A stretch of 64,000 nt of DNA from Burkholderiales bacterium (GCA_035518095.1 DATIXX010000035.1:30430-94429), one strand, 5' to 3'. Positions 2,182 to 37,882 are shown, numbered from the stretch's first letter. Notes: a model not told the origin generated them from the letters alone. Numbers and translations are program-made.

Positions 2182-3210
2182 CTAAGGCCTGTCCAAGCTT
2201 CCGACAGCCTTCGGATAGGTCACGACGCCCCACGGAATTTTCAGCCCTGAAATTATCTTTACGGGCTCATAGGTTTTTGCGTCGACGACATAGAGATTAT
2301 TTGATCGGCCGCATGCGACAAGAATCCGCGCATCATCGGGAGTAAAGCTGAAGTGCCAGCATCGGGCCCCAATCGGAATGTTCTTGATGAGAGAAAAGTT
2401 CTTGGTGTTGAACACCTGCAGCTGCTTGGAGCGCGCGGCGGCCACAAATAGCCGTTTGCCTTGACGGTCAAAAGCGAGTCCGTAGGGTGCGTCGCCCGTC
2501 GGCACGGTCTTTATAATATCCAACTTGCGGCTAAGAATGAGAAGTTTGTTAGAAAACTCCAAAGTAACGGCATACATTTTCCCGTCCGGCGATACCTTGA
2601 TACCTCGGGGCCGGTTGCCATATTTGGTTGTATCGATAGTCTTGACCAGTTTGCCATTTGAGATATTGTAGACCGTAACAGTATTATCCCCTTCGTTCGT
2701 CACCAACATAAGCTTCCCGTCAGGCGAAAATTCAATGCCCTCCGTTTCGGGGCCGCTGAGCATGGTTTCGATGAGCCGCCAGTTTTCAAGATCGAGAACC
2801 GCAATTCCGGCAGGCTTCTTCTGCTCTTCCTTCCCGGATTTTTCGCCCTGCTCGCCCTCTGGGGCGCCTTCCCCCGCACTGGGCTCATAGCTCACATATG
2901 CGCGATTGTGATACACACGAATGAACTCCGGATTTTTACCTATCGCTATATGCTTTACCGCTTCGCGCGTCGCAGTATCGATGACCGATATGTTGCCGCT
3001 ATCCTTGTTGGCGGTGAGTACGTATTTTCCGTCTGGCGTTATGCCAATTCCGCGCGGCTCCTTGCCTTGAATATCGATCGTCGCGACGGGCTCCAAAGTA
3101 TCAAGATCAATCACCGTAACGCCGTCTTGTTGATTCGATACATAGGCAAAAGGCGCGGCGAATGCCGGGACGGTGATGAATGCAGCCAACAGCACAACTG
3201 TTTTCAGCAT
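2182..3210 (-). CDS. periplasmic YVTN-type beta-propeller repeat protein (PQQ-dependent-catabolism-associated type)
   Basis: 342 aa with signal peptide VPAFAAP. Repeated (T/S)PDGK ... V(T/S)N ... V(I/Y)D blades are visible. It sits in a PQQ gene neighbourhood. Confidence 0.7.
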   Translation of the reverse strand: MLKTVVLLAAFITVPAFAAPFAYVSNQQDGVTVIDLDTLEPVATIDIQGKEPRGIGITPDGKYVLTANKDSGNISVIDTATREAVKHIAIGKNPEFIRVYHNRAYVSYEPSAGEGAPEGEQGEKSGKEEQKKPAGIAVLDLENWRLIETMLSGPETEGIEFSPDGKLMLVTNEGDNTVTVYNISNGKLVKTIDTTKYGNRPRGIKVSPDGKMYAVTLEFSNKLLILSRKLDIIKTVPTGDAPYGLAFDRQGKRLFVAAARSKQLQVFNTKNFSLIKNIPIGARCWHFSFTPDDARILVACGRSNNLYVVDAKTYEPVKIISGLKIPWGVVTYPKAVGSLDRP

Positions 3211-3356: not shown

Positions 3357-4634
3357 TCAGAAGAACAGAATCGCGCCAAGTGAGAACTGGTGCGACGCGT
3401 TCTTGCCGCCGCCAGCTGCCGTCGCTCCGGTCGCCTGGCTGCTTGAGTGGATGTCGTCATACTCTTCCACCAGGGTGATCGACTTGGTCAGACTGTATTG
3501 CAGCATTTGCGTACGCATGCGGTTGAAGTTAACCAGCGTCGCGGCGTTTGCGGCGTTTTCGTCCGCCGCATACGTCAAACGGCTGAAGCCATAGCTAAAC
3601 CCGGGTTTCCACTTGCCGAAAGCGTGTTGCACCTGGATATAACCGCCATCCGAGTTGCGCTTGTTGCCGGCAGCATCGATACCTTGGCAAAACAGGCAGG
3701 TTGTACCCACGCCTCTCGCCTGATAGAAATAGATCACCGGCTCGAAGCCATAAACATTGCCTTTGATACCCATATCGCCCGCAAGCGCGGTAAAACCATT
3801 ATTGATGGTTGGACCTACGCCATCCGCACTGTTAAGGGTGGATCTTTGCATCATACCGCTCACCCATAAGTGAATGCTTTTTATATCTTCGTTCACATTG
3901 AAATCATACGTGCCCTTCGCTTGGAACATGGGCAACGTATGGCCGGAAGCAGTCTGTCCCCCGAGAAGACCTGAATACATGGTGAGGGGCTGGAAGATAC
4001 CTGCTGAAACCTGGGCTCCGTCCCAGCTCGGGCTAATGTAAGTGATTTGCGGAATCCAGTCGGCGTAGATGTAACCAAAACCAATACGCCCCAAAGTGGT
4101 GGTTCCCGGCGCGTTCGCGGTAGTAAATGTGGAGTTGCCACCGACACCCAGCAAGGTCATATCGCTCAATATCGCGTCAGAGGCGAAAAGACCCAGGTCG
4201 CGACCAAACTTGAAGGTCCCCATGTCTTTGTCGCCGAACGTCAGGAAGTTTTGCCGCATGTTGATTTGCGAAAGCGACAGGGCACTGTTACCGGGAGAGT
4301 TAGAAATACCGGGGTAGAAACCGGCGGTAATTCCGATATCAAAACCTTCCTGCATGGTCTTGGCTGAGAATACAAATGCCGAAGGCAACAACCCGCTGTT
4401 GACCTGGGAGGCATTAGAGCCTTGCGAAGACGGAATCGGAGCCGCGCATGCCAAGCCACCCACGACCACGTTGGCATTGTTATCGCAATGAGTGTAGGTA
4501 TAAAACGCATTGACTTCGCCGCTAAACGACAAATCCCAGTCGCCTGCCTTAACATTAAAGGCATGTGCAGCGCTCGCGCCACACAACGCGAAGGCACCCG
4601 CTACGGCCATGCTTAGCTTCTTATGCTTTACCAT
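3357..4634 (-). CDS. outer-membrane porin
   Basis: 425 aa. Signal peptide ends ...SAAHA. The body is Gly/aromatic-rich with alternating beta-strand character, and the C-terminus ...LGAILFF ends in Phe. A strong SD (AAGGAGGAAG) precedes the ATG. Confidence 0.7.
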   Translation of the reverse strand: MVKHKKLSMAVAGAFALCGASAAHAFNVKAGDWDLSFSGEVNAFYTYTHCDNNANVVVGGLACAAPIPSSQGSNASQVNSGLLPSAFVFSAKTMQEGFDIGITAGFYPGISNSPGNSALSLSQINMRQNFLTFGDKDMGTFKFGRDLGLFASDAILSDMTLLGVGGNSTFTTANAPGTTTLGRIGFGYIYADWIPQITYISPSWDGAQVSAGIFQPLTMYSGLLGGQTASGHTLPMFQAKGTYDFNVNEDIKSIHLWVSGMMQRSTLNSADGVGPTINNGFTALAGDMGIKGNVYGFEPVIYFYQARGVGTTCLFCQGIDAAGNKRNSDGGYIQVQHAFGKWKPGFSYGFSRLTYAADENAANAATLVNFNRMRTQMLQYSLTKSITLVEEYDDIHSSSQATGATAAGGGKNASHQFSLGAILFF

Positions 4635-8632: not shown

Positions 8633-9280
8633 TCATGAGTTTTGGATCAACCCCGCGCGCATCGCAATGAGCGCCAATTCCGCCGAGTTTGATGCATTAA
8701 GCTTTTGTTTTATATTGTATAAGTGCGTACCAACGGTGCGCGGACTCAAATGCAACATGTCTGCGATTTCGGCTACGGTTTTGCCTTGGGCCAGCAGCAT
8801 AAATACCTCGAATTCTCGCGCGCTAAGCACGTCAACCAAGCTTTTCTCTCCGGAGAGCTGCTGCATTGCAAGTTGCTGCGCAATTCCCGGCTCGATAAAA
8901 GTCTTGCCCTGGGCTACTTGACGTATTGCCTGTATCAGCTCTTCCGCCGCGCTGCGCTTGGTAAGATAACCCAACGCTCCCGCTTTCAATACGCGTCTTG
9001 GATGCATAGTGTCTTCGTGTGCTGACAATACCAGAATACGCGCCGCGGGATCTTTTGCAATGATACGATTGACCGCCTCTAGGCCCCCGATCCCGGGCAT
9101 GGAGATATCCATGACCACCACATCGGGGTGCTTCTCCTGATAGATACGGTATGCCTCCTCGCCGCTCTCGGATTCCGCTACGACTTTCATGTCAGCGGCG
9201 CTTTCAAGCAGCATGCGGAATCCCATGCGCACGACTGCGTGGTCATCGACCAGCATGACTTCAATCGCCGGCGCAGCCAT
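8633..9280 (-). CDS. NarL/LuxR-family response regulator
   Basis: 215 aa. REC domain (VVVMDISMPGIGG) plus a LuxR-type HTH (LSAREFEVFMLLAQGKTVAEIADMLHLSPRTVGTHLYNIKQKL). Confidence 0.9.
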   Translation of the reverse strand: MAAPAIEVMLVDDHAVVRMGFRMLLESAADMKVVAESESGEEAYRIYQEKHPDVVVMDISMPGIGGLEAVNRIIAKDPAARILVLSAHEDTMHPRRVLKAGALGYLTKRSAAEELIQAIRQVAQGKTFIEPGIAQQLAMQQLSGEKSLVDVLSAREFEVFMLLAQGKTVAEIADMLHLSPRTVGTHLYNIKQKLNASNSAELALIAMRAGLIQNS

Positions 9281-11007
9281 TATGTCTTTCCTTCAAGCGG
9301 CAAGCTCGCTGTTACGCGGAAACCCATATCCGGAGCGCTGTCGATTCTAAAGCTGCCGTTTAACGCTTGCACCCGTTCCCGCATCCCGAGCAATCCGAAA
9401 TGACCCTCCGATGTCGCTTCCGCAGGAGTGCCTTTGCCATCATCGCATATTTCGAGTTGCAGTACGTCGCCGGCACCTTTTTCGGCCGGCCGGCGCGTTA
9501 TTGCAATTTTCACGTTGCCGGCCCGCGCGTGACGCACCACATTGGTCAAACATTCTTGGACGATGCGGTACACGGTAATAGTTATGGTTTCGCCGAGGTT
9601 ATCCAGACTTCCCGAGACCTCGAGTTGGAATTTCAGTTCGGGATGACGCAACCTCCAGGCCGCAATGCTGTCGTGCAACGTTTCGGAAAGACCCAGGTTG
9701 TCCAGCGCGCTCGGGCGCAGGCGGCTTATGATTCCATGCATCGCACCATAAATAAGTGCGGCAACACTGACGATGGTCCGCGCGCTGCTCCGCACTTCGG
9801 GTGTGCTTTCAGCGCGGTTGGCAATCGACGCGCCTATGGTTTTGATGGCGGTGACATACTGTCCAAGTTCGTCGTGTAGCTCACGCGCAAGGCTGCGCCT
9901 TTCCTCCTCGACACGGGCCTGAATAATTTGTGTCAACCTTCGATTTTCCTCAAGTTCGCGCGCGGCCTGCTGGGCGCGCTTTCTTTCGGTGTTGTCGCGC
10001 ATGCTGCATATTTCGCCGATCACATATTCATTGCGTGGATCAATCAGCGGCGCGGCGGATAGGGACACGTCCATAAGCTTGCCGTCTTTGGCAAGCCTCT
10101 GCGTCTCGACGTTCTCGATCAGACCGCGGCGCATGACTATCTCCAGATTCTCCTTGATTTCGTTTTCTCTGCCGGGGGGCGCAAGTAGGGTCGCGGAACG
10201 ACCCGTGATTTCGTCAGCAGTGTAGCCAAACAGGCGTTCCGCCGCAGGATTCCAGAACGATATATTGCCGTTAAGATCGTGAATCATTATGGCGTCACTC
10301 GATTGCTTGACAGTCAAGGCGAGTCTTCGATTCTCCACCATGCTGTCTTGTAACGCGCTTGCCATACGATTGAAAGTATGGCTGACCGAGGACAGTTCGG
10401 GCAGTGGAAACTGCGGCAGTCGCACGTCAAAATTGCCCTGTTCCATTTGCGACAATCCATCGAGAACCCGGTTCAGCGGACGCAGTGAGCGCCCTATCAG
10501 CCAGAACACCAGGACATTCACCGCTACAAAAAATGCCAGGACGATCCATATAAGGTAGCGCAAATCGTCCCATGCATCGAGCACCGAACGCGAAGCGTCG
10601 GGAGTAATTAGCAGCGTGCCTCCGGGTATTCTTAGCGTCACGACCTGGACCTTGGGAGCAACCAGCCGGGAAAACCAACCTGGAGCCCAGCGCCCTTCTT
10701 TGTAATGCGTGGGAGGCGATTCGTAGACCAGGTTTCCAAGACCGTCGTAAAGCTTGATGTCGTTGGCGCGCACGTGCCCCAGACTATTTAGGAAATCGAT
10801 AACGACTCGCCGCTGTGTCACCGGTCCCGGAAAAAACTGGCTGCTGTAGAGCACGGTGGTCAGTAATTGCACCGCGACGCGGGTGGTCCCTTCTATTTCT
10901 TCCTTCACCGACTTGCGCGTGTCATCCACGTATATGGTGCCCGTGACCGTCACGAACAACAGCATCAGAATGCTGATCAGAAGGTTGATCCGAAACCTCA
11001 GGCTCAT
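9280..11007 (-). CDS. sensor histidine kinase (HAMP-PAS-HisKA_3-HATPase, NarX-like class)
   Basis: I trimmed the ORF-track N-terminus to MSLRFRINLL..., the ATG at 11007, which forms an ATGA overlap with the pip stop. Has a TM/HAMP region, a PAS domain, the H-box ELHDELGQ and an HATPase domain. Confidence 0.85.
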   Translation of the reverse strand: MSLRFRINLLISILMLLFVTVTGTIYVDDTRKSVKEEIEGTTRVAVQLLTTVLYSSQFFPGPVTQRRVVIDFLNSLGHVRANDIKLYDGLGNLVYESPPTHYKEGRWAPGWFSRLVAPKVQVVTLRIPGGTLLITPDASRSVLDAWDDLRYLIWIVLAFFVAVNVLVFWLIGRSLRPLNRVLDGLSQMEQGNFDVRLPQFPLPELSSVSHTFNRMASALQDSMVENRRLALTVKQSSDAIMIHDLNGNISFWNPAAERLFGYTADEITGRSATLLAPPGRENEIKENLEIVMRRGLIENVETQRLAKDGKLMDVSLSAAPLIDPRNEYVIGEICSMRDNTERKRAQQAARELEENRRLTQIIQARVEEERRSLARELHDELGQYVTAIKTIGASIANRAESTPEVRSSARTIVSVAALIYGAMHGIISRLRPSALDNLGLSETLHDSIAAWRLRHPELKFQLEVSGSLDNLGETITITVYRIVQECLTNVVRHARAGNVKIAITRRPAEKGAGDVLQLEICDDGKGTPAEATSEGHFGLLGMRERVQALNGSFRIDSAPDMGFRVTASLPLEGKT

Positions 11008-11969
11008 CGCGGGCGCTCCCCCGGCACTATCGATCTGAAACGCTCGGTCGCGGCCACCAGTGCTGAGGCCAGTGCCGGCGTGGATGCTGAATGGCCGGCA
11101 TTCTCCACTATGGTAAACCGCGCTTGCGGCCAGGCGCGATGCAAAGTATACGCGGTGCCCACTGGGCACACCATGTCGAAACGGCCGTGCACAATTTCGG
11201 CCGGAATAGCGCGGATCGCAGCCAAACCCTGTAACAACTGATTCTCGGAAAGAAAACATCCATTAACCAGATAATGCGTCTGTACCCGGGCGCGCCCCAG
11301 GACGTCATTGTCATTGAGCGCGGGCTTCGCCTCTTGTTGTAGCTCACCCAGCCTCATCAACTCGCTCTCGTACGCATTCCAAGCAAGCGCGGCGGCAAGC
11401 GCCAAGCGAGTGTCCGGCTGATGTATGGCCCGGTAATAAAAACCGAGCAGGTCATTGCGCTGCGTCCCGGGCACGAACCCCGAAAACCGATCCCAGGCTT
11501 CCGGGGCGAAGAATTTCAGGCCATCACAATACCAGTCGAGTTCACGCTTACTTGCGAGAAAAATCCCGCGCAGGATCAAACCGGCCACCGCTTGCGGGTG
11601 CTGCTCGGCGTATGCAAGCGCGAGCGTAGAGCCCCACGAACCGCCGAATAGCAGCCAGCGCTCGATCTCGAGCACGGCGCGCAGTCTCTCGATATCTGCG
11701 ATCAGTGAGGACGTGCTGTTCTCGCGCAGCTCTGCAACCGGCACGCTCCGCCCACAGCCGCGTTGGTCGAACAAAACGATGCGGTAGTGTTGCGGGTTAA
11801 AGAAACGCCGCTGTCCCGGGTTGCAGCCGCTGCCCGGGCCGCCGTGCAAAAACAGCACCGGCTTGCCCGCGGTACTGCCGCATTCTTCGTAATAAACTCT
11901 GTGTCCTCCAGTTACATCGAGCATGCCTACGGCGTACGGCTCAATTTCAGGGAAAAGCGCATGGTTCAT
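11004..11969 (-). CDS. pip: prolyl aminopeptidase (proline iminopeptidase, S33 alpha/beta hydrolase)
   Basis: Starts MNHALFPEIEPY... at 11969, in an ATGA overlap with the upstream MBL stop. Has HGGPGSG and the GGSWGS nucleophile elbow. Confidence 0.85.
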   Translation of the reverse strand: MNHALFPEIEPYAVGMLDVTGGHRVYYEECGSTAGKPVLFLHGGPGSGCNPGQRRFFNPQHYRIVLFDQRGCGRSVPVAELRENSTSSLIADIERLRAVLEIERWLLFGGSWGSTLALAYAEQHPQAVAGLILRGIFLASKRELDWYCDGLKFFAPEAWDRFSGFVPGTQRNDLLGFYYRAIHQPDTRLALAAALAWNAYESELMRLGELQQEAKPALNDNDVLGRARVQTHYLVNGCFLSENQLLQGLAAIRAIPAEIVHGRFDMVCPVGTAYTLHRAWPQARFTIVENAGHSASTPALASALVAATERFRSIVPGERPR

Positions 11970-12925
11970 TTTTCGAACTCTTGCCTTTCCAACTCGCTGT
12001 ACACATGCTGCACGTTCAAAGGATGCTGCTCGGAATAAAGTGCCCAATTTCTATAAGCCGGCAGATCGTCTTGCTTCAACAGGTCGAGGACACCAACGCC
12101 AGCATTGTATTGGCGCTCTACCAGAGCAAGCAGGCGTTGCAAATAATCCAGCGTTTCCCGCATACGTTCCGGATTGGAAACCGGACCGTTGCCCGGAACC
12201 AGCTTTTTTGCCGGCTGCTGCTGCAATTGCTCGAGCGCACTAATCCAGCCTTTGATCCTGGCTTGCTGCAACACCGGTATGCAATCCAATGATACCAACC
12301 CGCCGCTGAACAACACGCCGCTTCTGCGGTCAAGTACCGCGAGATCCCCTTCCGTATGTCCCCAACCATAGTAGAGCAGGCTTAATGGGCGCCCCGCGAT
12401 AGTCAAGTCGCTGCTCTTATCCACCGTCCTATCGGGGTATGCGATTTTGGTGCCGGCCATGATTGTGTCGCCCAACACGTTTGACATATTTTCGTAGCAC
12501 TTCTCACAGCGATTGCGCATCGCCAGCAGCGTTTGACTTTGCGCAAGAATAGTTACGCCGCGCCGAGCGAAAAAATCGTTACCCAGAACATTCTCCGGAT
12601 GGGGGTGGGTGTCAATCACCAGCCGCACCGGTTTAGGGCTAATTTTCCGTATCGCCGCCATCATGAGTTTGGCGTGCGCATAATTCGGACCGGGGTCGAT
12701 TACGATTACACCGGTCGCGCCGACGATAAATCCGCTGTTCAAAATGTTCCCGCGGTTTGCCGGGGCTAGAGCTTCGCATTTGCCTATGAAAGCATAAACG
12801 TCCGGGGTGACCTGCTGCGGCACCAGCTCGCGCCCGTGCGCAGCCGGAAACAGGCCGAAGCCGAGCAACAAGGGGTAGATTACGACGCGGTTTATTTCTC
12901 GCTCAGTCGTTGAGCTTGAAAACAA
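11966..12925 (-). CDS. MBL-fold metallohydrolase, secreted (possibly the quinoprotein-relay-system zinc hydrolase type)
   Basis: 319 aa with a signal-like N-terminus. The metal motif is DTHPHPEN (an HxHxD/E variant), with a later GHTEGD. The family name is recalled from memory and needs an HMM check. Confidence 0.65.
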   Translation of the reverse strand: MFSSSTTEREINRVVIYPLLLGFGLFPAAHGRELVPQQVTPDVYAFIGKCEALAPANRGNILNSGFIVGATGVIVIDPGPNYAHAKLMMAAIRKISPKPVRLVIDTHPHPENVLGNDFFARRGVTILAQSQTLLAMRNRCEKCYENMSNVLGDTIMAGTKIAYPDRTVDKSSDLTIAGRPLSLLYYGWGHTEGDLAVLDRRSGVLFSGGLVSLDCIPVLQQARIKGWISALEQLQQQPAKKLVPGNGPVSNPERMRETLDYLQRLLALVERQYNAGVGVLDLLKQDDLPAYRNWALYSEQHPLNVQHVYSELERQEFEK

Positions 12926-13634
12926 TCGGCACCACTACAGTAAATTTGCGATCTCGCAAGGCTTCCGGGGGCAACGGCAAGGGCGCCGCCTGCTGTACCA
13001 TGTCCAGCGCTTGATTGTCGAGCACTTCATACCCGCTCGAGCGCAGGATGGTGGCATCGTCCATTTTGCCGTTTGCTGAAATGACCAGCTGAACTTGCGC
13101 GGTGCCTTGCCAGCCGCGTAACTGCGCAATAAACGGATAGCGTTGATATTTGGAGATTAAACTCGAAAGTTCCTTTCCGTAGCTGTCAAGCAATGATCTT
13201 TCCGGAACGGCTTTCGCCAAGGCCACGGGCGCGGGTGCGGTAGGTACCGGTGCGGGCGGAGCAGTTTCAGCAGGTGCGGTTGTCTGCGGCGGGGCTACGG
13301 GAGGGGTTTCAGCAGGTATCTTCTTCGGGCGTGGTGCGGCATTGGCTTCAATTCTCGGTCGTTGCGGAAGCTTGAATGCGCTCGGTGCGCGCTCAGTTAT
13401 TATCGGAGCCGGCGTGAGTTTGGGCTGAGGTTTGGCGGGTGGTGCAACAGGGGCAGGCTGTGGGCGCACAAATTGCGGCAACTGAACGCTCAGGACCGGT
13501 TGCGGTTGCAAACGATTGGTACGCCATGCTGGAACGAGAGAAAGCACCGTCGCATGGATTAGCATCGAAAGCACCAGGGCCGTAACGACCCTGCGCTGGT
13601 TGTACCATTCGATACGAAACTGGGCGTTAACCAC
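12903..13634 (-). CDS. TonB-family energy transducer
   Basis: 243 aa. An N-terminal TM anchor is followed by a long Pro-rich spacer (PQPAPVAPPAKPQPK...) and a TonB_C-like end (YPFIAQLRGWQGTAQVQLVI...VVVPIVFKL). Confidence 0.7.
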   Translation of the reverse strand: MVNAQFRIEWYNQRRVVTALVLSMLIHATVLSLVPAWRTNRLQPQPVLSVQLPQFVRPQPAPVAPPAKPQPKLTPAPIITERAPSAFKLPQRPRIEANAAPRPKKIPAETPPVAPPQTTAPAETAPPAPVPTAPAPVALAKAVPERSLLDSYGKELSSLISKYQRYPFIAQLRGWQGTAQVQLVISANGKMDDATILRSSGYEVLDNQALDMVQQAAPLPLPPEALRDRKFTVVVPIVFKLND

Positions 13635-13880
13635 GGGACAATTCAGAGGTAAAAAAACCTTAATTAAAGGTTAATGGAAACCGCAGCGTTATGCAATTGA
13701 TGCATTTCAAACTCATGATAATCATGATCCGGGTTTGCTGATTATTCCGATGTTAGACAATCAGCTCGAGTTCACAATGGTAGCAAGGTTTTCAGACGGT
13801 ATTTGTTTAAACATCAGTCTGGAATCGTGTCAGGTTAAAGTACCTGGAAACAGTAGAGCTACTAATTAAAGGAGACTGTC

Positions 13881-13955
13881 ATGCAATGGAGCAAACCAGA
13901 GTATAGCGATATGCGCTTCGGCTTCGAAGTAACGATGTATATTGCAAATCGCTAA
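13881..13955 (+). CDS. pqqA: PQQ precursor peptide PqqA
   Basis: 24 codons, below the ORF-track cutoff. Translation is [31 protein letters not shown] lies 6 nt upstream. It sits directly upstream of pqqBCDE. Confidence 0.95.
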   Translation: MQWSKPEYSDMRFGFEVTMYIANR

Positions 13956-13965
13956 TCATGCTACA

Positions 13966-13992
13966 CCGGGGGCCGCGGCGACGCGGCCCCGG
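13966..13992 (+). terminator. pqqA-pqqB intergenic GC-rich stem-loop (partial terminator/attenuator)
   Basis: CCGGGGCCGCG-GCGA-CGCGGCCCCGG is an 11-bp stem followed by only TTT. This position is typical for setting a high pqqA:pqqB transcript ratio. Confidence 0.55.
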
Positions 13993-14092
13993 TTTAAGGT
14001 CAAGAGTCCTACAGCGTTTTCCAATCAGATAAAGTAACATGAGCGGGTGCGCTGCAGGCGCGTGCGGCGGGATTGGTTTAGAGTGATAAAAC

Positions 14093-15007
14093 ATGAAAAT
14101 TCGTGTTCTTGGAGCATCGGCCGGCGGCGGATTTCCGCAGTGGAACTGCAACTGCGCTAACTGTGACGGCGTGCGCAAGGGCAAAATCAAGGCCAAGCCG
14201 CGCACCCAGTCCTCGATTGCAGTCAGCGAAAACAACCTGGACTGGATACTATTCAATGCCTCACCGGACGTTCTGACTCAAATCAAAGCATTTCCCGCGT
14301 TGCAACCGGCACGCTCAATTCGCGATACCGCAATTCGATCCATCCTCCTGATCGACAGTCAGATCGATCACACCACGGGCTTGCTAATGCTGCGGGAAGG
14401 GAAACCGCTGGAGATTTACTGCACCGAAATGGCGCGCGAAGACCTTACAACCGGGAACCCTCTGTTCAATATTCTTGAGCACTATTGCACCGCTAATTGG
14501 CACAAATTGCCCACCCAAAACGGAAATAGATTTACGGTTATTGGAGCACAGCGCTTAGGCTTCACCGCGGTACCGCTGAAGAGCAAGGCGCCGCCGTATT
14601 CGCCCCATCGCGAGAATCCTCATGAAGGCGACAATATCGGCATCCGCGTCGAGGACCCAGGCACGGGCAGGAACCTGTTTTACGCTCCGGGCCTCGGCAA
14701 AATTGAGCCGCATCTCGAAGCGTTTCTTAAAAACGCCGACTGCCTACTGGTCGACGGCACCTGCTGGACCGACGACGAACTGATCCGCCTCGGCATCTCA
14801 AAACAGAGTTCGCGCGATATGGGGCATCTGCCGCAAAGCGGCGAAGGCGGCATGATCGAACTGCTGAAAGCACTGAGCAAACCGCGCAAGATTTTGATCC
14901 ATATCAACAACACCAATCCCATACTCAACGAAGATTCAAAGGAGCGCGCCGAACTGACCGCCAACGGGATTGAAGTGGCGTATGATGGTATGGAGATCGA
15001 TTTGTGA
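14093..15007 (+). CDS. pqqB: PqqB (MBL-fold PQQ biosynthesis protein)
   Basis: 304 aa. N-terminus is [31 protein letters not shown] lies near the C-terminus. Confidence 0.95.
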
Positions 15008-15023
15008 AAATCAGGAGTTAACG

Positions 15024-15740
15024 ATGGGCGTAACTGAAAAATTACCGTGGAGTAAAGAGGAATTTGAGCACCAGCTGCGAGCCAAAGGCGACCGCTACCA
15101 CATTAATCACCCCTACCACTTGGCGATGAACAGCGGCAAGCTGAATAGAGAGCAAATCCAGGGTTGGGTATACAACCGTTTTTATTATCAAATCAGCATC
15201 CCGATCAAGGACGCCGCGATTCTCTCCAATTGCCCGGACCGCGAAGTACGCCGCGAATGGATCCAGCGCATCATCGACCACGACGGCACAAAAGGCGACG
15301 AAGGCGGCATTGAGGCGTGGATTCGTCTCGGCGAGGCGGTGGGTTTGAAGCGGCAGGAAATTACTTCATTAAAGCATGTTTTGCCGGGCGTGCGCTTCGC
15401 GGTCGACGCCTATGTCAACTTTGCCCGGTCCCGCCCGTGGCAGGAGGCGGTGACGTCATCGCTCACCGAACTTTTTGCCCCGGAAATCCACAAGAAACGG
15501 CTCGACAACTGGCCGCAGCATTATCCGTGGATCGACCTGGAGGGCTATCAGTATTTCCGCAACCGCCTGGCCCAGGCGCGCCGCGACGTTCAGTTCGCCC
15601 TAAGCTTCACGCTTGGTCAGTACACGACGCGGGAGCAGCAAGAGCGGGCCCTGGAAATCCTGCAATTCAAGCTGGATGTGCTTTGGTCAATGCTGGACGC
15701 GATGCAGATAAACTATTGCGAGGGCGGACTTAAACCATGA
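15024..15740 (+). CDS. pqqC: PqqC (pyrroloquinoline-quinone synthase)
   Basis: The start was moved to the ATG at 15024, which follows AGGAG. The sequence [32 protein letters not shown]... is typical of PqqC. Confidence 0.93.
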
Positions 15741-16030
15741 CTGGAGCAACGTCGCTCGGTCTGGATGATGTGATGGAACTCGGCCGACAGTTTCGTTTGC
15801 AATGGGAACAGGCGCAGCAGGCTTACGTACTGCTCTACCCGGAAGGCATGATCAAGTTGTCGCAGAGCGCAGGTGAAATATTGAAACGCATCGATGGAAA
15901 ACTCTCGGTTGCCGGAATTGTCAAAAATCTGGAAGGAGCATTTCCCAATGCGAACTTGCATCAAGATGTAATAAATTTTCTAGAGGTCGCTTATGAACGC
16001 GGTTGGATCCACCCCAAGCAAGCAAGCTAA
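15737..16030 (+). CDS. pqqD: PqqD (peptide chaperone for PqqE)
   Basis: 97 aa, in an ATGA overlap with pqqC. Contains [31 protein letters not shown]. Confidence 0.9.
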
Positions 16031-17162
16031 ACCGGTCAGCAATCCGCTGTGGCTGCTTGCCGAAATCACTTACAAGTGCCCGCTGCACTGTGTGTTTTGC
16101 TACAACCCGGTGGACTACACGCGCTATGGACAGGAGTTATCCACCGACGATTGGTTGCGCGTGCTGCGTCAATCGCGCGAGCTGGGCGCAACGCAACTCG
16201 GTTTTTCAGGGGGCGAGCCGCTGGGGCGGGATGATCTTGAGATCATGGTCGCCGAGGCGCACAAGCTGGGTTATTACTCCAATCTGATTACCTCCGGCGT
16301 CGGGCTCAACGAAAAGCGCATCGCGGCGTTTAAGGAAGGCGGCCTCGACCATATCCAGCTTTCCTTTCAGGATTCCACCCGCGAGCTCAATGACTTCCTG
16401 ACAAGTACTCGGACCTTCGAACTCAAGTCGAAGACCGCGGGGCTTATCAAGAAATACCAGTACCCGATGGTGCTCAATGTAGTACTGCACCGGCTCAACA
16501 TCGACCACGTCCAGCAAATCCTGGAAATGGCTGAATCGATGGAGGCGGAGTATGTCGAACTCGCCAACACCCAGTATTACGGCTGGGCGTATGTGAACCG
16601 CGACCAGCTTTTGCCCAGCAAAGAGCAGCTGCAGCGCGCTGAAGAGGTCACCAATAAGTTTCGTGAGCGGGTCGGCAAAAAGATGAAGATTTACTTCGTG
16701 GTGCCCGATTATTACGAAACCCGGCCCAAGGCCTGCATGAACGGCTGGGGCTCGGTTTTCATCACGGTGACCGCCGACGGCGTGGTGCTTCCCTGTCACG
16801 AAGCGCGCATGCTCCCGGGGCTCACCTTCCCCAATGTACGCGAACATGACATGAAGTGGATTTGGTACGACTCGCCAGGCTTTAACACCTTCCGCGGTGA
16901 TGAATGGATGAAAGAGCCGTGCCGCTCTTGCCCGGAAAAAGTGAAGGATTTCGGCGGCTGTCGTTGCCAGGCTTATATGCTCACGGGTGACGCGCGTAAT
17001 GCGGACCCGGTTTGCGATCTATCGCCCCACCACCACCTGATTGCCGAAGCTGTCGCCAAAGCACAGCGGGCCAGCATTAAACCGGCAACTACACACCCAA
17101 TACTGTTCCGCGACGACAAAAACTCGCGCGCCTTGAGCGAAAAAGCTGTCGCGCTGCCATGA
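15993..17162 (+). CDS. pqqE: PqqE (radical SAM / SPASM enzyme)
   Basis: 389 aa. Has the CPLHCVFC (CxxxCxxC) radical-SAM motif and C-terminal SPASM cysteines (CRSCPEKVKDFGGCRCQ). Confidence 0.95.
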   Translation: MNAVGSTPSKQAKPVSNPLWLLAEITYKCPLHCVFCYNPVDYTRYGQELSTDDWLRVLRQSRELGATQLGFSGGEPLGRDDLEIMVAEAHKLGYYSNLITSGVGLNEKRIAAFKEGGLDHIQLSFQDSTRELNDFLTSTRTFELKSKTAGLIKKYQYPMVLNVVLHRLNIDHVQQILEMAESMEAEYVELANTQYYGWAYVNRDQLLPSKEQLQRAEEVTNKFRERVGKKMKIYFVVPDYYETRPKACMNGWGSVFITVTADGVVLPCHEARMLPGLTFPNVREHDMKWIWYDSPGFNTFRGDEWMKEPCRSCPEKVKDFGGCRCQAYMLTGDARNADPVCDLSPHHHLIAEAVAKAQRASIKPATTHPILFRDDKNSRALSEKAVALP

Positions 17163-18112
17163 GGCGTGACATCGTTGACGCAGTGCCAGCCGTCCAGGCG
17201 GAGGGCTTGACCAAGCGTTACGGAAGCACCCTTGCGGTAGATGGATTAAACCTCGAAATCCCTGCCGGTCAGTTTTTCGGCCTGTTGGGCCCGAATGGGT
17301 CGGGCAAGACAAGCACCATTCACATGCTCTCCACGCTGATCCGCCCCAGCCAGGGGCGCGCACAGATCGTAGGACATGATGTCAGGCGCGCCGGTTTGCA
17401 GGTGCGCGCTGCGATTGGCGTGGTGTTTCAAGAATCCGCATTGGATCGCACCTTGTCGGCTGCGGAAAACCTGCGTTTTGCAGGGCTGCTGCACAATCTT
17501 CCCGTCGCGCAAATCAGGGAGCGCTCCGGCGAGTTGCTTGAACTCTTCGGTCTCAAGGAAAAACGCAACCAAGCGGTGGGAACCCTCTCCGGAGGCCAAC
17601 GCCGCGCTCTCGATATCGCGCGCGGCGTAATTCACCGCCCGCAAATCCTGTTCCTGGACGAACCCACCATTGGGCTGGACGTTCCCAACCGCCGCAAAAT
17701 ATGGCGCTTTATAGAACGCCTGCGCGCGGAGTTTAACGTGACGGTATTTCTTACCACCCATTACTTGGAAGAAGCCGCGGATTGCGACAAGGTGGCATTT
17801 ATCAAACAGGGGCGCATCGTCAAGATCGGGCCGCCGCATGATCTGATTGACGGGCTGGGAGCCTACATCATTGAGATCGAGAGTGAAAATCTGCGCGCTT
17901 TGGTAGAAAGCCTGACACCGCGCTTGGGCCCGAGCCTCATCGACGGCGACAAGGCTTGTTTCCGCTTTACCGGCAAGGACATCAGCCCGCTAGTCATGCT
18001 GCAAATCGAATTGGGCAACAAGGTGATCAGCATGCGTTGGCGCCGCCCAAACCTGAATGACGTGTTTTTATGGATCAATGAAACTGAATTATGGCAGGTC
18101 AGAAAAACCTAG
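17159..18112 (+). CDS. ABC transporter ATP-binding protein (ABC-2/DrrA-like)
   Basis: 317 aa. Walker A GPNGSGKT, signature LSGGQRR, Walker B ILFLDEPT. Its ATG overlaps the pqqE stop (ATGA at 17159-17162). Confidence 0.9.
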   Translation: MRRDIVDAVPAVQAEGLTKRYGSTLAVDGLNLEIPAGQFFGLLGPNGSGKTSTIHMLSTLIRPSQGRAQIVGHDVRRAGLQVRAAIGVVFQESALDRTLSAAENLRFAGLLHNLPVAQIRERSGELLELFGLKEKRNQAVGTLSGGQRRALDIARGVIHRPQILFLDEPTIGLDVPNRRKIWRFIERLRAEFNVTVFLTTHYLEEAADCDKVAFIKQGRIVKIGPPHDLIDGLGAYIIEIESENLRALVESLTPRLGPSLIDGDKACFRFTGKDISPLVMLQIELGNKVISMRWRRPNLNDVFLWINETELWQVRKT

Positions 18113-18936
18113 AGGAATGCCAGATAATGGTTTTACGCCCCGTTTACGCCGTGATTGAACGCGAAGTGTTGAAACTCTTCCGCCAGCGCTCCCGCTTGCT
18201 CGCGGCGATGGTGCGGCCGATGATCTGGCTGCTGGTTATCGGCGCAGGCTTTGACGCCATGCTTGGCCGTTCCGGCAATTTGAGCTACCAGTATTTTCTC
18301 GTTCCAGGAGTACTAGGAATGTCCATGCTGTTCGGCGCGATGCTCGCCGCTCTTTCCACAGTTTACGACAAGGAGTCCGGGGTGATGCGCATGCTGGTGA
18401 TTGCACCGTTCGAGCATTATTGGATTGTGATAGCCAAGACCTTAAGTGCAGCGCTTGCCGCCGCGCTCCAGGCGCTCATGGTTCTGGTGCTGCTGTTTTT
18501 GCTCGGCTACTTGAGCAATGGCGTAAGGCTGCCGCTTCTGGCTTCGGGTATCGTATGCACATCGCTGGTATGCGCCAGCCTGGGGATGCTGATCGCCGCC
18601 TGGACCCGGACGCTCGACAATTTTGCGGTGATGATGAACCTGGTGATTTTCCCGGTGTTTTTTCTATCCGGCTCGCTTTATCCGGTGCAGCATTTACCGA
18701 GCGTGCTACGATTTGTCGCCAGCATCAATCCCTACACCTATGGCGTGGATCTCCTTAAACATGCGGTGCCGGCACTGCAGGAAAGTTCCTTCCATCCGGA
18801 TTTCGGGGTTCCGCTCGATATAGCCGTACTGCTGGGCTTTGTCCTGCTTTCAACCGTGATCGCATGCCTGCGTTTCTCGCGCGACACTGCGTACGAGCCG
18901 CTGATTCACATACTGGCGCGTAAGCGCGAGGATTGA
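18091..18936 (+). CDS. ABC-2 type transporter permease
   Basis: 281 aa with six hydrophobic segments. An alternative start, MVLRPVYAV, is at 18127. Overlaps or abuts the ATPase gene. Confidence 0.8.
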   Translation: MAGQKNLEECQIMVLRPVYAVIEREVLKLFRQRSRLLAAMVRPMIWLLVIGAGFDAMLGRSGNLSYQYFLVPGVLGMSMLFGAMLAALSTVYDKESGVMRMLVIAPFEHYWIVIAKTLSAALAAALQALMVLVLLFLLGYLSNGVRLPLLASGIVCTSLVCASLGMLIAAWTRTLDNFAVMMNLVIFPVFFLSGSLYPVQHLPSVLRFVASINPYTYGVDLLKHAVPALQESSFHPDFGVPLDIAVLLGFVLLSTVIACLRFSRDTAYEPLIHILARKRED

Positions 18937-19129
18937 TCGCGGCTACGCGCGCCGGAAAAACCTCCAGATTTCGGGTTTGAAAATTTCAACCGTGTTTCCC
19001 GGCAGCTGCCGTTTTAGACCCGGCCAGAAGCACAAAAAAATCGAGCATAGCTTTTGCCTTCGGTTAGGGGAGCTCCGCAAGTCCGCACTTGTGAGCCGAT
19101 AAATTGCGTGCGAAACCGCAAAAGCTGCC

Positions 19130-20134
19130 TCACATTATCGTGCCTCGGTTATTCCGGTCTGCGCGATTGTTTGCGGTTCGGGCTTCCCGTGCCCGGCGGA
19201 TTTCGCGGCTTAATTCGAACACGGCCATGGCGTAATTGACGCTGCGGTTATAGCGTGTAATCACGTAGAAATTGTTGAGCGCAAGCCAGTACTGAGCTTC
19301 ATCACCGTCGCCCAATACGAATAAACTTGCCAGAATTTCATCGGGAATTTCCTGCTCGGGTGTAACGCCCATCTTTTGCAATTCAGCCACCGGCACGCGC
19401 GGCTTGACATCTGGCGACAGCAAAGGCGCTAATTCATCGCCGTTCTCCACCACGGCCACCGCGATCGGCTGACCGGGTTGCCAGCCGTAAGCCTTGTAGT
19501 AATTCGCGATGCTACCGATGGCATCCGCGGGGTCCTCCCACAGATTCAGCGTGCCGTCGCCGTTGAAGTCCACAGCATAGCGCCGATAGACGCTGGGAAT
19601 AAACTGCGGCAAGCCCATCGCCCCGGCATAAGAGCCTTTGATGCCCAGTGGATCGATGCGGTCTTCGCGCGTGAGCAGGAGGAACTGTTCAAGCTCCTGT
19701 TTGAAAAAACCGGCGCGCTGCGGGTAATCGAAGGCCAATGTGGTCAGGCTATCCAGCACGCGGTAAGCCCCGGTGCTCCTGCCGTAGCGCGTTTCTACGC
19801 CTATGGTCGCGACGACGATTTCTTCGGGAATGCCGTACTGCTGGCGCGCGCGCGCGAGTGCCTCCGCGTTGTCGTCCCAAAATTTAACCCCTTCGTCGAT
19901 GCGTGTCGGATTGATGAACCGTGCGCTGAAATCATCCCAGGACATTGAGGTCGCGGGCATGGAAATCGCCTCAAGGACCTCTGGATCAGGTTTTACCTGG
20001 CTGAAAATGTTGCGCAGCTCGCGTGGATTGAAATGATATTTTTCGGCCATCTTGTGGATAAAGGTTTCGATTTCAGGATCCAAACGCGCAGCATGACCGA
20101 TGCCCGGTACAAACAACACCGAGCAAAGCAGCAA
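19130..20134 (-). CDS. mltB: lytic murein transglycosylase B family
   Basis: 334 aa. Contains GVETRYG, GAMGLPQFIPS and NRSVNYAMAV. The true start is probably upstream of the TTG at 20134 (see findings). Confidence 0.85.
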   Translation of the reverse strand: MLLCSVLFVPGIGHAARLDPEIETFIHKMAEKYHFNPRELRNIFSQVKPDPEVLEAISMPATSMSWDDFSARFINPTRIDEGVKFWDDNAEALARARQQYGIPEEIVVATIGVETRYGRSTGAYRVLDSLTTLAFDYPQRAGFFKQELEQFLLLTREDRIDPLGIKGSYAGAMGLPQFIPSVYRRYAVDFNGDGTLNLWEDPADAIGSIANYYKAYGWQPGQPIAVAVVENGDELAPLLSPDVKPRVPVAELQKMGVTPEQEIPDEILASLFVLGDGDEAQYWLALNNFYVITRYNRSVNYAMAVFELSREIRRAREARTANNRADRNNRGTIM

Positions 20135-25711: not shown

Positions 25712-28324
25712 TTAGATTAAACCAGCGTTCTTTTGGTTCGGAACTAAACGTAAATAAAAGAATCTTTTTACCCATTGCACCAGCAACAGATAGGCAGCCA
25801 CCATACCCCCCAATATCAAAAAGAACCAACCGGGAAGCTGGACAAAGCCAAAATAAGCGCCTATTGGGATGAAAGGGAGCACAGCGGCCAAAACAACAAC
25901 TGTAATCGAGCTCGCCGCCAGTAACGGGTGCGGGCGATTGGCGAAGGGACTTGCGCGCGTGCGGATCACGAAAATGACCAGGACCTGTGTCGCCAGGGAT
26001 TCGACAAACCAACCTGTCTGAAACAACGCCATGTCCGCGCGCATGATTTCCAGCAGCACGTAAAAGGTGAGAAAGTCAAACAGTGAGCTCACCGCGCCTA
26101 CGACCACCATGAAATTTCTGATGAATTTGGTATCCCAGTGGCGCGGCTTTTCGACTGCCTCGGCATCGACGCTATCCAGCGGAATCGCCACTTCCGAAAT
26201 ATCGTAAAGTATATTGTTAAGCAGTATCTGCGTCGGCAGCATCGGCAGGAAAGGCAGGAATAAGCTCGCTCCCGCCATGCTGAACATGTTGCCGAAATTT
26301 GAGCTCGTGCCCATCATGATGTACTTCATGATATTGGCGAATGTCCTGCGCCCTTCCTCGACACCGTCGTGCAATACGTTCAGATCGCGCTTTAGGAGGA
26401 TCATGTCGGCCGCATCCTTGGCCACATCCACGGCCGAGCTCACGGATAACCCGACATCGGCTGAATGCAGCGGCGGCGCGTCATTAATGCCATCGCCAAG
26501 ATAGCCCACAACATGGCCGCGCGCTCTCAAGGCCTGGATGATGCGGCTTTTTTCTCCAGGTGTCACCCGGCAAAAAAGATTCACGTATTCCACCGCTGCC
26601 TGCAGCGCGCTGTCGTCCATTGCAGCGATCTGCCCGCCCATCAACACTTCCGTTACCTTGATTCCAAGTTGCACGCACAGATGCTTTGTAACCTGCTCGT
26701 TGTCGCCAGTTATGATCTTGAGTTGCACGCGGCTTTGCGCCAGAGCTGCAAGTGCCGCGGCAGCGCTTTTTTTGGGCGGATCATAAAACGCAACAAAACC
26801 GGCGAAAACCAGTTGGCTTTCATCGTCACGTGTGGCACTTTCCCGATCGCGTGCAATCTCGCGCCAGGCGACAGCAACCGCTTTCAAGCCTTCTCCGCCA
26901 AGCGCGCCATATCGTGTTTGTATCGATTCAAGTGTGGCGGCATCAAGCTCGCGGATTGATCCTGCGCTTTCCTCATAGCGGGTCGACGTACGCATAACAT
27001 CTTCAGGAGCGCCTTTGACAACCAGGACCCGGCGCTCGCCGTTATCCAGCAAAACCGATACTCTGCGGCGCTCAAAGTCAAATGGAACTTCGTCAATCTT
27101 TTTCCACGTCGTCGTGTCAATATGCTGATGCTCCAGAATGGCGATGTCGAGCGGGTTCTTCAGCCCGCTCGCAAAATAGCTCGTCAAATAGGCGAGCTGC
27201 AGCGCCCTCGTACTTTCCTGGCCCATGGCGTCGAGGTGTTGCGCGACCCGGATGCGCGCTTCAGTGAGCGTGCCGGTCTTGTCGGTGCACAGAACATCCA
27301 TGCTGCCGAGGTTCTGGATCGACGCCAAACGTTTCACGATCACCTTTTTGTCCGCCATGCGGATCGCACCGCGGGAAAGCGTAACCGTCACCACCATGGG
27401 CAATAATTCCGGTGTAAGGCCGACGGCGAGTGCTATCGCGAACAGCAAGGACTCCAGCAATGGTCGGTGAAACAGCGCATTGACCAACAGCACAAATAAA
27501 ACCAGAAAAAAGGTAAGTCGCATGATCATCAGCCCGAAACGCCGCGTTCCAAGCTCAAAATCGGTGGGCGCTCTTCTGCGTCCGACATACTCGGCAATTT
27601 GCCCGATCGCGGTAGTACTGCCAGTTTTGCAAACCAGCATCTTCGCCGTGCCGCTGGTTACGGCGGTCCCCATAAAAAGCGCGTTTCCGGCACTCAGCAA
27701 ATCCGCATCAGCAGGAAGAGTGTCGAGCGGCCGTTTTTCGACCGGATAAGGTTCGCCGGTAAGTATCGACTGATTGACAAACAAATCTCGCGACTCGACG
27801 ACGCGCCCGTCCGCAGGGACTAGATTCCCTGCCGCCACCAGAACGACGTCGCCGGGCACGAGATGCTGTACTGGGACGGCGCGCGGGGTTGCATCGCGCA
27901 AAACCGTTGCATGTACTGCAACCATATCCCGCAGTCGCTCCGCTGCCCGCTCCGCGCGGTATTCCTGAATGAAATCCAGAGTAACGCTGAGAATGACTAT
28001 AATATTGATGATGGCGAAACCGGCAATTTCCTGGGTGAGCAACGAAACGCTGCTCGCCACCAGCAGGATAATAACCAGCGGGTTCTTGAAACGCGTCAGG
28101 AACTGAATAACGAGCGATCGCTTGGGGATGTCCTGAAACGAATTGGGCCCTGAAATGCGCAGTCGGCGGCGAGCTTCCTTGCCCGAAAGACCCTGGCGGC
28201 TCGCATCGAGTACAGTCAAACATTCGCTTAGCGGCTTGCGCCACCACGCGTCATCAACCGTGGTTGTAAGTCCTGAACTGCGGCTTCGCTGCCCGGATGC
28301 TGCAAAGAATCGGCGCCTGCTCAC
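25712..28324 (-). CDS. mgtA: magnesium-translocating P-type ATPase
   Basis: 870 aa. Contains LFVNQSILTGEPYPVEK, CTDKTGTLT and GDGINDAPPLHSADVGLSV. Collinear by eye with enterobacterial MgtA. Confidence 0.88.
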   Translation of the reverse strand: MSRRRFFAASGQRSRSSGLTTTVDDAWWRKPLSECLTVLDASRQGLSGKEARRRLRISGPNSFQDIPKRSLVIQFLTRFKNPLVIILLVASSVSLLTQEIAGFAIINIIVILSVTLDFIQEYRAERAAERLRDMVAVHATVLRDATPRAVPVQHLVPGDVVLVAAGNLVPADGRVVESRDLFVNQSILTGEPYPVEKRPLDTLPADADLLSAGNALFMGTAVTSGTAKMLVCKTGSTTAIGQIAEYVGRRRAPTDFELGTRRFGLMIMRLTFFLVLFVLLVNALFHRPLLESLLFAIALAVGLTPELLPMVVTVTLSRGAIRMADKKVIVKRLASIQNLGSMDVLCTDKTGTLTEARIRVAQHLDAMGQESTRALQLAYLTSYFASGLKNPLDIAILEHQHIDTTTWKKIDEVPFDFERRRVSVLLDNGERRVLVVKGAPEDVMRTSTRYEESAGSIRELDAATLESIQTRYGALGGEGLKAVAVAWREIARDRESATRDDESQLVFAGFVAFYDPPKKSAAAALAALAQSRVQLKIITGDNEQVTKHLCVQLGIKVTEVLMGGQIAAMDDSALQAAVEYVNLFCRVTPGEKSRIIQALRARGHVVGYLGDGINDAPPLHSADVGLSVSSAVDVAKDAADMILLKRDLNVLHDGVEEGRRTFANIMKYIMMGTSSNFGNMFSMAGASLFLPFLPMLPTQILLNNILYDISEVAIPLDSVDAEAVEKPRHWDTKFIRNFMVVVGAVSSLFDFLTFYVLLEIMRADMALFQTGWFVESLATQVLVIFVIRTRASPFANRPHPLLAASSITVVVLAAVLPFIPIGAYFGFVQLPGWFFLILGGMVAAYLLLVQWVKRFFYLRLVPNQKNAGLI

Positions 28325-36750: not shown

Positions 36751-36820
36751 TCGAGCGGCGCTCCCGAAAAGCAGATGGTAGGAATCACCAGCCGCTACTC
36801 TTCGGTTTTCACGGCTTAAG

Positions 36821-37441: not shown

Positions 37442-37511
37442 CCCGATTTTTTAATATTGAAACAAGCGGCTGTTTTGCAACGGTCGTACGTTCAGCCCTG
37501 AAAGCGAAAAC

Positions 37512-37844: not shown

Positions 37845-37882
37845 TGCTCTTTTCTCCTTACCGTAAATTACACAACACCAGC

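Follow-up and report, generated by a model that had tools for sequence, protein, structure and literature searches.

We analysed a 64,000-nucleotide stretch of DNA from a Burkholderiales bacterium (GCA_035518095.1 DATIXX010000035.1:30430-94429; hereafter, the window), whose plus strand carries a complete operon for the biosynthesis of pyrroloquinoline quinone (PQQ)—pqqA, B, C, D, and E, in that order—followed directly by the ATPase and permease genes of an ATP-binding cassette (ABC) transporter of the ABC-2 type. The transporter type as such is ordinary; what appears to be undescribed is its invariable attachment to the PQQ-synthesis genes, together with the substrate that this implies. Judged from sequence and gene context, the two-gene pair is a strong candidate for the pump that takes PQQ across the cytoplasmic membrane. 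The unit comprises the following features, numbered from the first letter of the window:

13881..13955, plus strand: pqqA, a 24-amino-acid precursor peptide with the E-x3-Y pair, read from the sequence
13965..13993, plus strand: G+C-rich stem-loop, an attenuator-type hairpin in the gap between pqqA and pqqB (-25.9 kcal/mol, z -3.2)
14093..15007, plus strand: pqqB (TIGR02108, 426.8 bits; cut-off 245)
15024..15740, plus strand: pqqC (TIGR02111, 375.7 bits; cut-off 240)
15737..16030, plus strand: pqqD (NF002535, 114 bits; cut-off 101)
15993..17162, plus strand: pqqE, radical SAM/SPASM protein (TIGR02109, 527.4 bits; cut-off 381)
17159..17162, plus strand: ATGA junction, the ATPase start codon overlapping the pqqE stop, read from the sequence
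17159..18112, plus strand: ABC ATPase, 317 amino acids, with a DrrA-type C-terminal domain (~80 amino acids) after the nucleotide-binding domain (PF00005, 108.2 bits; cut-off 25)
18113..18126, plus strand: 14-nucleotide spacer with an AGGA ribosome-binding motif, read from the sequence
18127..18936, plus strand: ABC-2 permease, 269 amino acids, six transmembrane helices, type V exporter fold (PF01061, 116.2 bits; cut-off 26.9)

PqqB, PqqC, PqqD, and PqqE each exceed the equivalog cut-off of their NCBIfam model, and the gene set qualifies as a pqq operon. A pqqA-type peptide likewise lies upstream of pqqB in related loci, and the hairpin that separates the two genes in the window was equalled in folding energy by 1 of 200 shuffled sequences. 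The start position of pqqC was adopted from the gene calls on identical contigs. In a scan of species genomes, the closest named relatives of the locus were Burkholderiales metagenome-assembled genomes (MAGs), and an identical-protein look-up placed the window in soil-type metagenome assemblies (ENA, JGI).

The junctions between pqqE, the ATPase gene, and the permease gene are tight. As the initial annotation of the window had pointed out, the ATG of the ATPase (17159-17161) and the TGA of pqqE (17160-17162) share a 4-nucleotide ATGA overlap, and the open reading frame (ORF) coordinates bear this out. A single overlap of this kind is frequent in operons and says little by itself; it is its conservation, described below, that goes beyond chance. 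The annotation had also held that the permease gene overlaps or abuts the ATPase gene, of which the second alternative is the correct one. The longest permease ORF begins at 18091, a start that would mean a 22-nucleotide overlap with the ATPase. We instead place the true start at 18127, 14 nucleotides past the ATPase stop, because the majority of 120 listed homologues are 269 amino acids long (with nearly all full-length ones between 263 and 277), because all gene calls on four metagenome contigs with an identical ATPase put the permease start at the equivalent of 18127, and because an AGGA motif lies 11 nucleotides 5′ of that position.

A consensus scan of 13600-19200 returned no promoter-like site, nor any terminator-like site at the pqqE-ATPase or the ATPase-permease junction. 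With its tight junctions free of such sites, pqqA-B-C-D-E-ATPase-permease does resemble one unit, as had been proposed initially, and we infer that the transporter pair is co-transcribed with pqqA-E and that translation of the ATPase is coupled to that of pqqE. Two local structures were considered and discarded: a terminator after the permease gene was unconvincing (z 0.19), and a hairpin at the pqqE/ATPase junction, with the AUGA in its loop, folded no better than shuffled sequences (z -0.46).

The ATPase carries the intact motifs expected of a catalytically competent enzyme (Walker A GPNGSGKT, 44-51; Q-loop, 89-92; signature LSGG, 143-146; Walker B ILFLDE, 163-168; H-loop TTH, 199-201). Its top NCBIfam model is TIGR01188 (drrA), matched by residues 19-304 over model positions 1-298 of 302 with 284 bits (cut-off 312.45), and the second-ranked curated family is TIGR03864 (PedB, PQQ_ABC_ATP), with 208.5 bits (cut-off 302.25). 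It matches a T. maritima ATPase (PDB 4yer) over its full length, and its nucleotide-binding domain is nearest in sequence to those of the ABCA type. For the permease, the top curated family is PedC (TIGR03861, 155.5 bits; cut-off 241.35), and drrB (TIGR01247) scores 143.2 bits (cut-off 223.05). Neither transporter protein passes any model in NCBIfam release 20, and public names for permease homologues are generic (e.g., "ABC transporter permease").

The AlphaFold2 model of the permease (predicted local distance difference test [pLDDT] 81, predicted template modelling score [pTM] 0.82) was compared with known structures in Foldseek. KpsM was the best match (template modelling [TM] score 0.68, probability 1.00), followed by ABCH, ABCG1/G5/G8/G2/G25, Wzm, TarG, and NosY; all 24 matches at E <=0.001 are type V transporters, and KpsM (8tsh) is also the nearest solved chain by sequence. 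Conserved polar residues of the permease include R23, R30, Q115, N165, N171, and Y185. Sequence and model together place the pair in the ABC-2, or type V, class of ABC exporters. In agreement with the initial annotation, no gene for a substrate-binding protein adjoins the pair, the next gene downstream being a convergent mltB. In one metagenome contig (L090), the ATPase and permease were called as a single fused protein (P0123, 669 amino acids); with a contig name indicating 2x coverage, a frameshift introduced by sequencing is a more probable explanation than a genuine fusion.

To trace the linkage beyond the window, a profile built from 26 aligned permease homologues was run against 185,579 species, each represented by one genome, of which 368 encode a relative of the permease. 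Clade counts given here rest on the best 80 of these 368 loci (permease identity 58-93%), with gene order determined by tblastn with the window proteins. Enough upstream DNA was available in 73 loci of other species, the other seven of the 80 ending at contig edges, and in all 73 the genes pqqB-C-D-E immediately precede the ATPase gene. The strict count is 72 of 73, and the apparent exception (L020) has the C-terminus of pqqE at its contig edge. Named sources in this clade are Burkholderiales/Betaproteobacteria MAGs, six Steroidobacteraceae MAGs, and six genomes of Candidatus Entotheonella/Tectimicrobiota. The geometry of the junctions recurs as well: between pqqE and the ATPase gene, a distance of -4 nucleotides (the ATGA type) was found in 25 of 71 loci, +16 in 20, and 35 nucleotides or fewer in 58, while the ATPase and permease genes are spaced by -4, -1, +1, or +2 nucleotides in 58 of 79 loci. 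Linkage in 73 of 73 loci together with this conserved geometry rules out chance synteny, and also the possibility, raised with the initial annotation, of a pqqE-ABC junction unique to this strain.

Across the loci, divergence of PqqE or PqqC tracks that of the ATPase or permease (Pearson 0.68-0.77), which fits the inheritance of pqq genes and transporter as one module. In the Steroidobacteraceae and Entotheonella loci, a PQQ dehydrogenase is encoded ~4-8 kb upstream of the pqq genes. Control pqq operons from cultured Burkholderia multivorans, Candidatus Thiodictyon, Acinetobacter lwoffii, and Methylovirgula lack the pair and end at pqqE or at a dipeptidase gene; in A. lwoffii (L104), pqqABCDE is followed by a dipeptidase of the M19 kind. 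Some clade members carry an additional gene between ATPase and permease. In L005 and L006 (permease 90-93% identical), it encodes a 268-amino-acid putative protein (9187-9993 in L005) that by sequence looks secreted, tandem-repeat, and cupin-like, and in L017 and L018 (9435-10004) a putative 189-amino-acid protein resembling a hotdog-fold thioesterase.

More distant relatives were collected by searching 1.84 billion cluster representatives and by a second homologue search, and their genomic contexts were inspected. The following were found attached to pqqE:

L093, a contig of 74% G+C: pqqBCDE, ATPase (323 amino acids, DrrA C-domain), fused double permease (610 amino acids), M19 dipeptidase; a PQQ dehydrogenase alongside
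L094, Conexibacter sp. MAG: gene order as in L093, with pqqBCDE, ATPase, fused double permease, M19 dipeptidase
L095, "Actinobacteria" MAG: order of the L093 type, plus pqqA; 4-nucleotide overlaps at both junctions
L096, metagenome contig: pqqBCDE, ATPase, permease (335 amino acids), M17 aminopeptidase; a 754-amino-acid PQQ dehydrogenase nearby
L091, metagenome contig: pqqE, short ATPase, permease
L100, metagenome contig (Logan ERR11594406): pqqC-pqqD fusion, pqqE, ATPase (4-nucleotide overlap), permease, pqqB

Over all the loci examined, the position of the pair behind the pqq genes (once within them) spans at least three phyla. In L100, the pair sits inside the pqq operon, between pqqE and pqqB; downstream of pqqB, this contig continues with a PhD/PIN toxin-antitoxin pair and, last, pqqA. 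The actinobacterial permease (L093-L095) joins both halves in one protein of 559-610 amino acids, a pseudo-heterodimer, and the actinobacterial pair lies between two genes that elsewhere are direct neighbours in the pqq operon (pqqE and the dipeptidase gene, as in Acinetobacter). The PQQ dehydrogenases encoded beside these operons bear lipoprotein signal peptides (…LLAACGGG, …LALAACGSG). Actinomycetota have a single membrane, and since the adjacent dehydrogenases carry lipoprotein signals, PQQ must cross it in these organisms. Three further contigs (L089, L092, L101) were too short to show the upstream context. In L098 and L099, a 40%-identical permease and its ATPase adjoin an 882-amino-acid protein with faint PQQ-repeat matches, and the contig stops before the expected position of pqqE.

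The initial annotation had labelled the pair PedB/PedC-like. In PedA1A2BC, an ATPase and a permease are combined with a binding protein and a YVTN beta-propeller; the system is encoded near quinoprotein dehydrogenases and is tied by genetics to lanthanide-dependent growth, being needed for growth at low lanthanide concentrations, and its reported role is lanthanide uptake (PMC12997753). Here the annotation had given the components, the vicinity of dehydrogenases, and the lanthanide link accurately, as both this study and the plasmid loci examined by us confirm. Ped transporters from annotated plasmids of Variovorax, Azospirillum, Shinella, and Salipiger served as positive controls: in Azospirillum lipoferum and Shinella sp. 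HZN7, all four components are encoded beside PQQ-dependent dehydrogenases, PedF, and "quinoprotein relay" genes, and the Salipiger abyssi control contributed an ATPase and a permease. Genuine PedB proteins scored 314-347 bits (Variovorax 314, Azospirillum 347), above the cut-off of 302.25, and genuine PedC proteins 352-428 bits, above 241.35. With 208.5 and 155.5 bits, the window pair falls far below the thresholds passed by these controls, and we reject its assignment to PedB/PedC; members of its clade from Entotheonella and Steroidobacteraceae score alike (213.7-215.5 bits with the PedB model, 157-174 bits with the PedC model). The label therefore holds in so far as no curated family is closer to the permease than PedC, but it fails for family membership, and for the ATPase DrrA ranks higher.

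In a neighbour-joining tree of 66 taxa (100 bootstraps), the window clade (97%), the Ped clade (99%), and the actinobacterial clade together with L096 (98%) were each recovered. By sequence, then, the pair is related to PedBC yet stands outside that family. What the two have in common is an ABC-2 ATPase and permease tied to PQQ biology. They differ in that the window ATPase is ~80 amino acids longer than PedB, with a DrrA-type C-terminal domain that PedB does not have, and in that the window pair sits on a pqq operon without PedA1 or PedA2, whereas canonical Ped genes belong to a dehydrogenase cluster. The initial annotation had presented attachment to the biosynthesis operon as a departure from the usual Ped context. 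This is true of the window pair but needs qualifying as a contrast, for a canonical Ped set is attached to pqqE on a plasmid of Variovorax boronicumulans (L085, NZ_CP138497.1, record 35897-42857): pqqB-C-D-E are followed by pedB, PedA2, PedA1, and pedC, with pedB overlapping pqqE by 7 nucleotides and with PedF and an aldehyde dehydrogenase encoded upstream. As a cultured strain, V. boronicumulans offers a tractable organism in which to ask why Ped-type transporters attach to PQQ synthesis.

These comparisons bear on a first alternative to PQQ export, namely, that the pair handles a lanthanide or another metal for PQQ dehydrogenases as PedB/PedC are reported to do, in a reduced form whose binding protein and propeller are absent or unlinked. 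The ranking of PedC and PedB among the curated families speaks for it, as do the identities to the controls (34-41% to PedC, 34-39% to PedB) and the requirement for PedA1A2BC at low lanthanide (PMC12997753). Moreover, the Variovorax set overlapping pqqE indicates that one operon can combine PQQ synthesis with metal handling, and a YVTN propeller gene is present in the window (2182-3210). That propeller, however, lies 14 kb from the transporter and scores 168.5 bits against a PedA2 cut-off of 287.3; it is flanked by a cytochrome b561 gene and an ORF without annotation, and the fetched clade loci showed no match to it within 10 kb of the transporter, so we reject it as a distant partner. Nor was a PedA1 binding protein or PedA2 propeller detected beside or between the transporter genes in the 80 clade loci. 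Both proteins remain well under cut-offs that the controls pass, the Ped and window clades separate in the tree, and it would be unusual for an importer to have an exporter fold and no binding protein. The variant with the pair between pqqE and pqqB (L100) likewise fits a link with the biosynthetic pathway better than one with metal. On balance, we consider metal handling unlikely.

A second comparison is with DrrAB. Both window proteins stay below the drrA and drrB cut-offs given above, and we reject identity with this system as well, although the two systems resemble each other: both are two-gene ABC-2 exporters without a binding protein and have the same C-terminal domain in the ATPase. DrrAB, known from daunorubicin resistance, exports a planar quinone and is encoded with the biosynthesis genes of that quinone. 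Its substrate is an antibiotic and its hosts are different ones, whereas the proposed substrate of the window pair is a small anionic cofactor. More generally, ABC-2 pairs that end the gene clusters of peptide-derived natural products usually export the product (McbEF, SagGHI). By analogy, such product-exporting pumps and the planar-quinone export by DrrAB apply as possible precedents for PQQ export.

The same kinship can be turned towards another substrate. The pair might export a product of PqqA processing other than PQQ—leftover PqqA fragments or a reactive intermediate—as a DrrAB-type housekeeping or self-protection function. It is indeed the DrrA model that the ATPase most resembles overall, C-terminal domain included; several peptide-natural-product systems use ABC-2 pumps for peptide export; and peptidase genes accompany the transporter, with M19 or M17 enzymes directly after it in the distant variants and an S33 enzyme upstream of the operon in the window. 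Yet these peptidases show no sign of being exported (inspected N-termini look cytoplasmic), short unmodified fragments are normally degraded in the cytoplasm and have no evident need for export, and intermediates should stay in the cell given that the last step, catalysed by PqqC, is cytoplasmic. Export of a by-product would also leave unexplained why PQQ enzymes that act outside the cytoplasm are encoded next to the operon, and we judge it improbable.

A third possibility arises from the structural matches. The transporter may move no small molecule, with ATP instead driving the maturation of extracytoplasmic quinoproteins, for example by cofactor insertion, in the manner of CcmAB (haem) or of NosFY-NosD (the copper-sulfide centre of nitrous-oxide reductase). 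NosY is among the Foldseek matches, CcmB (PF03379) is among the precomputed Pfam matches of many permease family members, and Ped operons encode a periplasmic propeller and binding protein just as NosD goes with NosFY. Against this, a periplasmic partner is neither encoded in the window operon nor conserved with it, the likeness to NosY and CcmB is one of shared fold only (TM ~0.56; 15-19% identity), and PQQ is bound non-covalently, with free PQQ loading apo-enzymes in vitro. Such a role appears very unlikely to us. The solved type V exporters as a whole—KpsMT, Wzm-Wzt, TarGH, ABCG1/G2/G5-G8, ABCH, and NosFY—share the permease fold (TM 0.53-0.68) but differ in sequence (11-22% identity), and because their substrates are polymers, lipids, or sterols, or their role is in enzyme maturation, they give no hint of the substrate here.

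Returning to PQQ export, we put at about even the chance that the pair is dedicated to exporting PQQ or a product late in the pathway. PqqC completes PQQ, an anionic tricyclic quinone, in the cytoplasm, and the loading of apo-quinoproteins takes place outside it. PQQ is the natural candidate substrate because it is finished inside, as an anion should not cross the membrane unaided, and is needed outside. The invariant and tight linkage to pqqE, its recurrence in distant relatives, the parallel divergence of pqq proteins and transporter, the exporter fold with a competent ATPase, the lack of a binding protein, and the extracytoplasmic PQQ enzymes encoded near the operon in several lineages all support this reading, in which transport would run outward. 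The two genes (17159-18112 and 18127-18936) would give rise to a homodimeric type V (ABC-2) exporter with ATPase and permease present in two copies each; its mRNA would be the one that also carries pqqABCDE, with ribosomes that end pqqE most likely re-initiating at the overlapping ATPase start codon. Its most likely job would be to move finished PQQ from the cytoplasm across the cytoplasmic membrane into the periplasm, and the pump may also prevent a cytoplasmic build-up of this redox-active, redox-cycling quinone.

Several points weigh against PQQ export, a function that we propose from comparative evidence and gene context. Scanning large ORFs of the 64-kb window turned up no PQQ-dependent dehydrogenase. 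In the tree, a simple neighbour-joining one, the union of the window, Ped, and actinobacterial clades against other ABC-2 permeases has a bootstrap value of 58%. Most PQQ producers lack the pair, making the arrangement a minority one, yet recurrent; and E. coli given only foreign pqq genes reportedly releases PQQ. Given both, a dedicated exporter cannot be a general requirement. P. putida without PedA1A2BC is said to still use its Ca-dependent PQQ enzyme. Finally, PedA1A2BC, the nearest characterised relatives, are genetically linked to lanthanide-dependent growth and not to PQQ supply (PMC12997753).

A broader reading would reverse the relation to Ped: the whole branch—the window clade, the actinobacterial clade with fused permeases, and PedBC—may serve PQQ delivery or the maturation of PQQ enzymes outside the cytoplasm and have arisen within pqq operons, with the lanthanide phenotype secondary or indirect and the two-gene form of the window a minimal PQQ exporter that would supply the step linking PQQ synthesis in the cytoplasm to quinoprotein loading outside it. 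We offer this as a speculation with a low probability of being correct.

We found no description of an ABC-2 pair attached to pqqE, either in NCBIfam or in the literature searched (on PQQ export, on pqqE with ABC transporters, and on actinobacterial pqq clusters). The initial annotation had described the route of PQQ to the periplasm as unsettled, and the proposals that we found, a hypothesis concerning META1p2359 (PMC7391723) and candidates from Gluconobacter oxydans, are in keeping with this. A transposon study in Methylorubrum extorquens hypothesised that META1p2359, a fused ABC transporter unrelated to the window pair, exports PQQ to the periplasm and that a leucyl aminopeptidase is a PQQ-processing enzyme (PMC7391723). 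Like the window pair, META1p2359 has no binding protein and is an ABC exporter put forward hypothetically as delivering PQQ to the periplasm (PMC7391723). It differs in that ATPase and membrane parts are fused rather than forming an ABC-2 pair, in that it is not encoded with pqq genes, and in that it was identified by a growth phenotype. A passage in a 2025 paper on PqqU states that PQQ "is transported to the periplasm" and, for the transporters, cites an omics study of G. oxydans, the source of the candidate PQQ transport proteins in that organism (PMC12124388). PqqU, a TonB-dependent importer, and PqqT, a periplasmic PQQ-binding protein, show that dedicated proteins for PQQ transport and binding exist (PMC12124388), but they reside in the outer membrane and the periplasm, respectively, work in the direction of uptake, and have folds unrelated to those of the window pair.

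With PQQ made in the cytoplasm and used outside it, a candidate two-gene exporter renders the question of its carrier directly testable. Were PQQ to prove the substrate, the pair would complete the PQQ pathway, could help to engineer the overproduction of PQQ as well as whole-cell catalysts based on quinoproteins, and would prompt a second look at what PedA1A2BC transports. If the pair handles metals or by-products instead, it would still constitute a new accessory function of pqq operons.

Beyond the operon, the following genes of the window are relevant as neighbours or as flanking genes of the propeller:

12903..13634, minus strand: TonB-C-domain protein, divergent from pqqA (TIGR01352, 73.6 bits); homologue at the same position in 35 fetched loci
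11966..12925, minus strand: SoxH-like metallo-beta-lactamase, related to 'quinoprotein relay system' hydrolases (TIGR04558, 226 bits; cut-off 300)
11004..11969, minus strand: prolyl aminopeptidase, S33 (TIGR01249, 362 bits; cut-off 260); same position in 33 loci
9280-11007, minus strand: HAMP-PAS-HisKA_3 sensor kinase, conserved upstream; kinase/regulator pair in 41-45 loci
8633-9280, minus strand: LuxR-type response regulator, the conserved upstream neighbour in those 41-45 loci
19130-20134, minus strand: mltB, convergent and adjoining the permease gene downstream
2182-3210, minus strand: YVTN beta-propeller, below the PedA2 cut-off
1485-2018, minus strand: cytochrome b561 gene, flanking the propeller
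3357-4634, minus strand: 425-amino-acid ORF, flanking the propeller, with no Pfam or NCBIfam match

Most members of the divergent set at 8633-13634 (minus strand) recur upstream of pqq in 33-45 related loci, and the SoxH-like gene is found there also in the closest relatives. The prolyl aminopeptidase could be the missing enzyme that trims PqqA, and the kinase and LuxR-type regulator could regulate the pqq operon. On the downstream side, slyD, bcp, cupin, bamC, and dapA genes (named by eye) were considered as partners and rejected; they recur in the ~65%-identity group but are housekeeping genes, mostly on the opposite strand, and were taken as lineage synteny.

Elsewhere, the window holds three P-type ATPase genes (25712-28324, minus strand; 32960-35347, plus strand; 47146-49704, plus strand), one of the heavy-metal type with YHS and HMBD domains and two of cation-ATPase types, as well as an 892-amino-acid protein (28559-31237) in which a GNAT domain is joined to an ADP-forming acyl-CoA synthetase.

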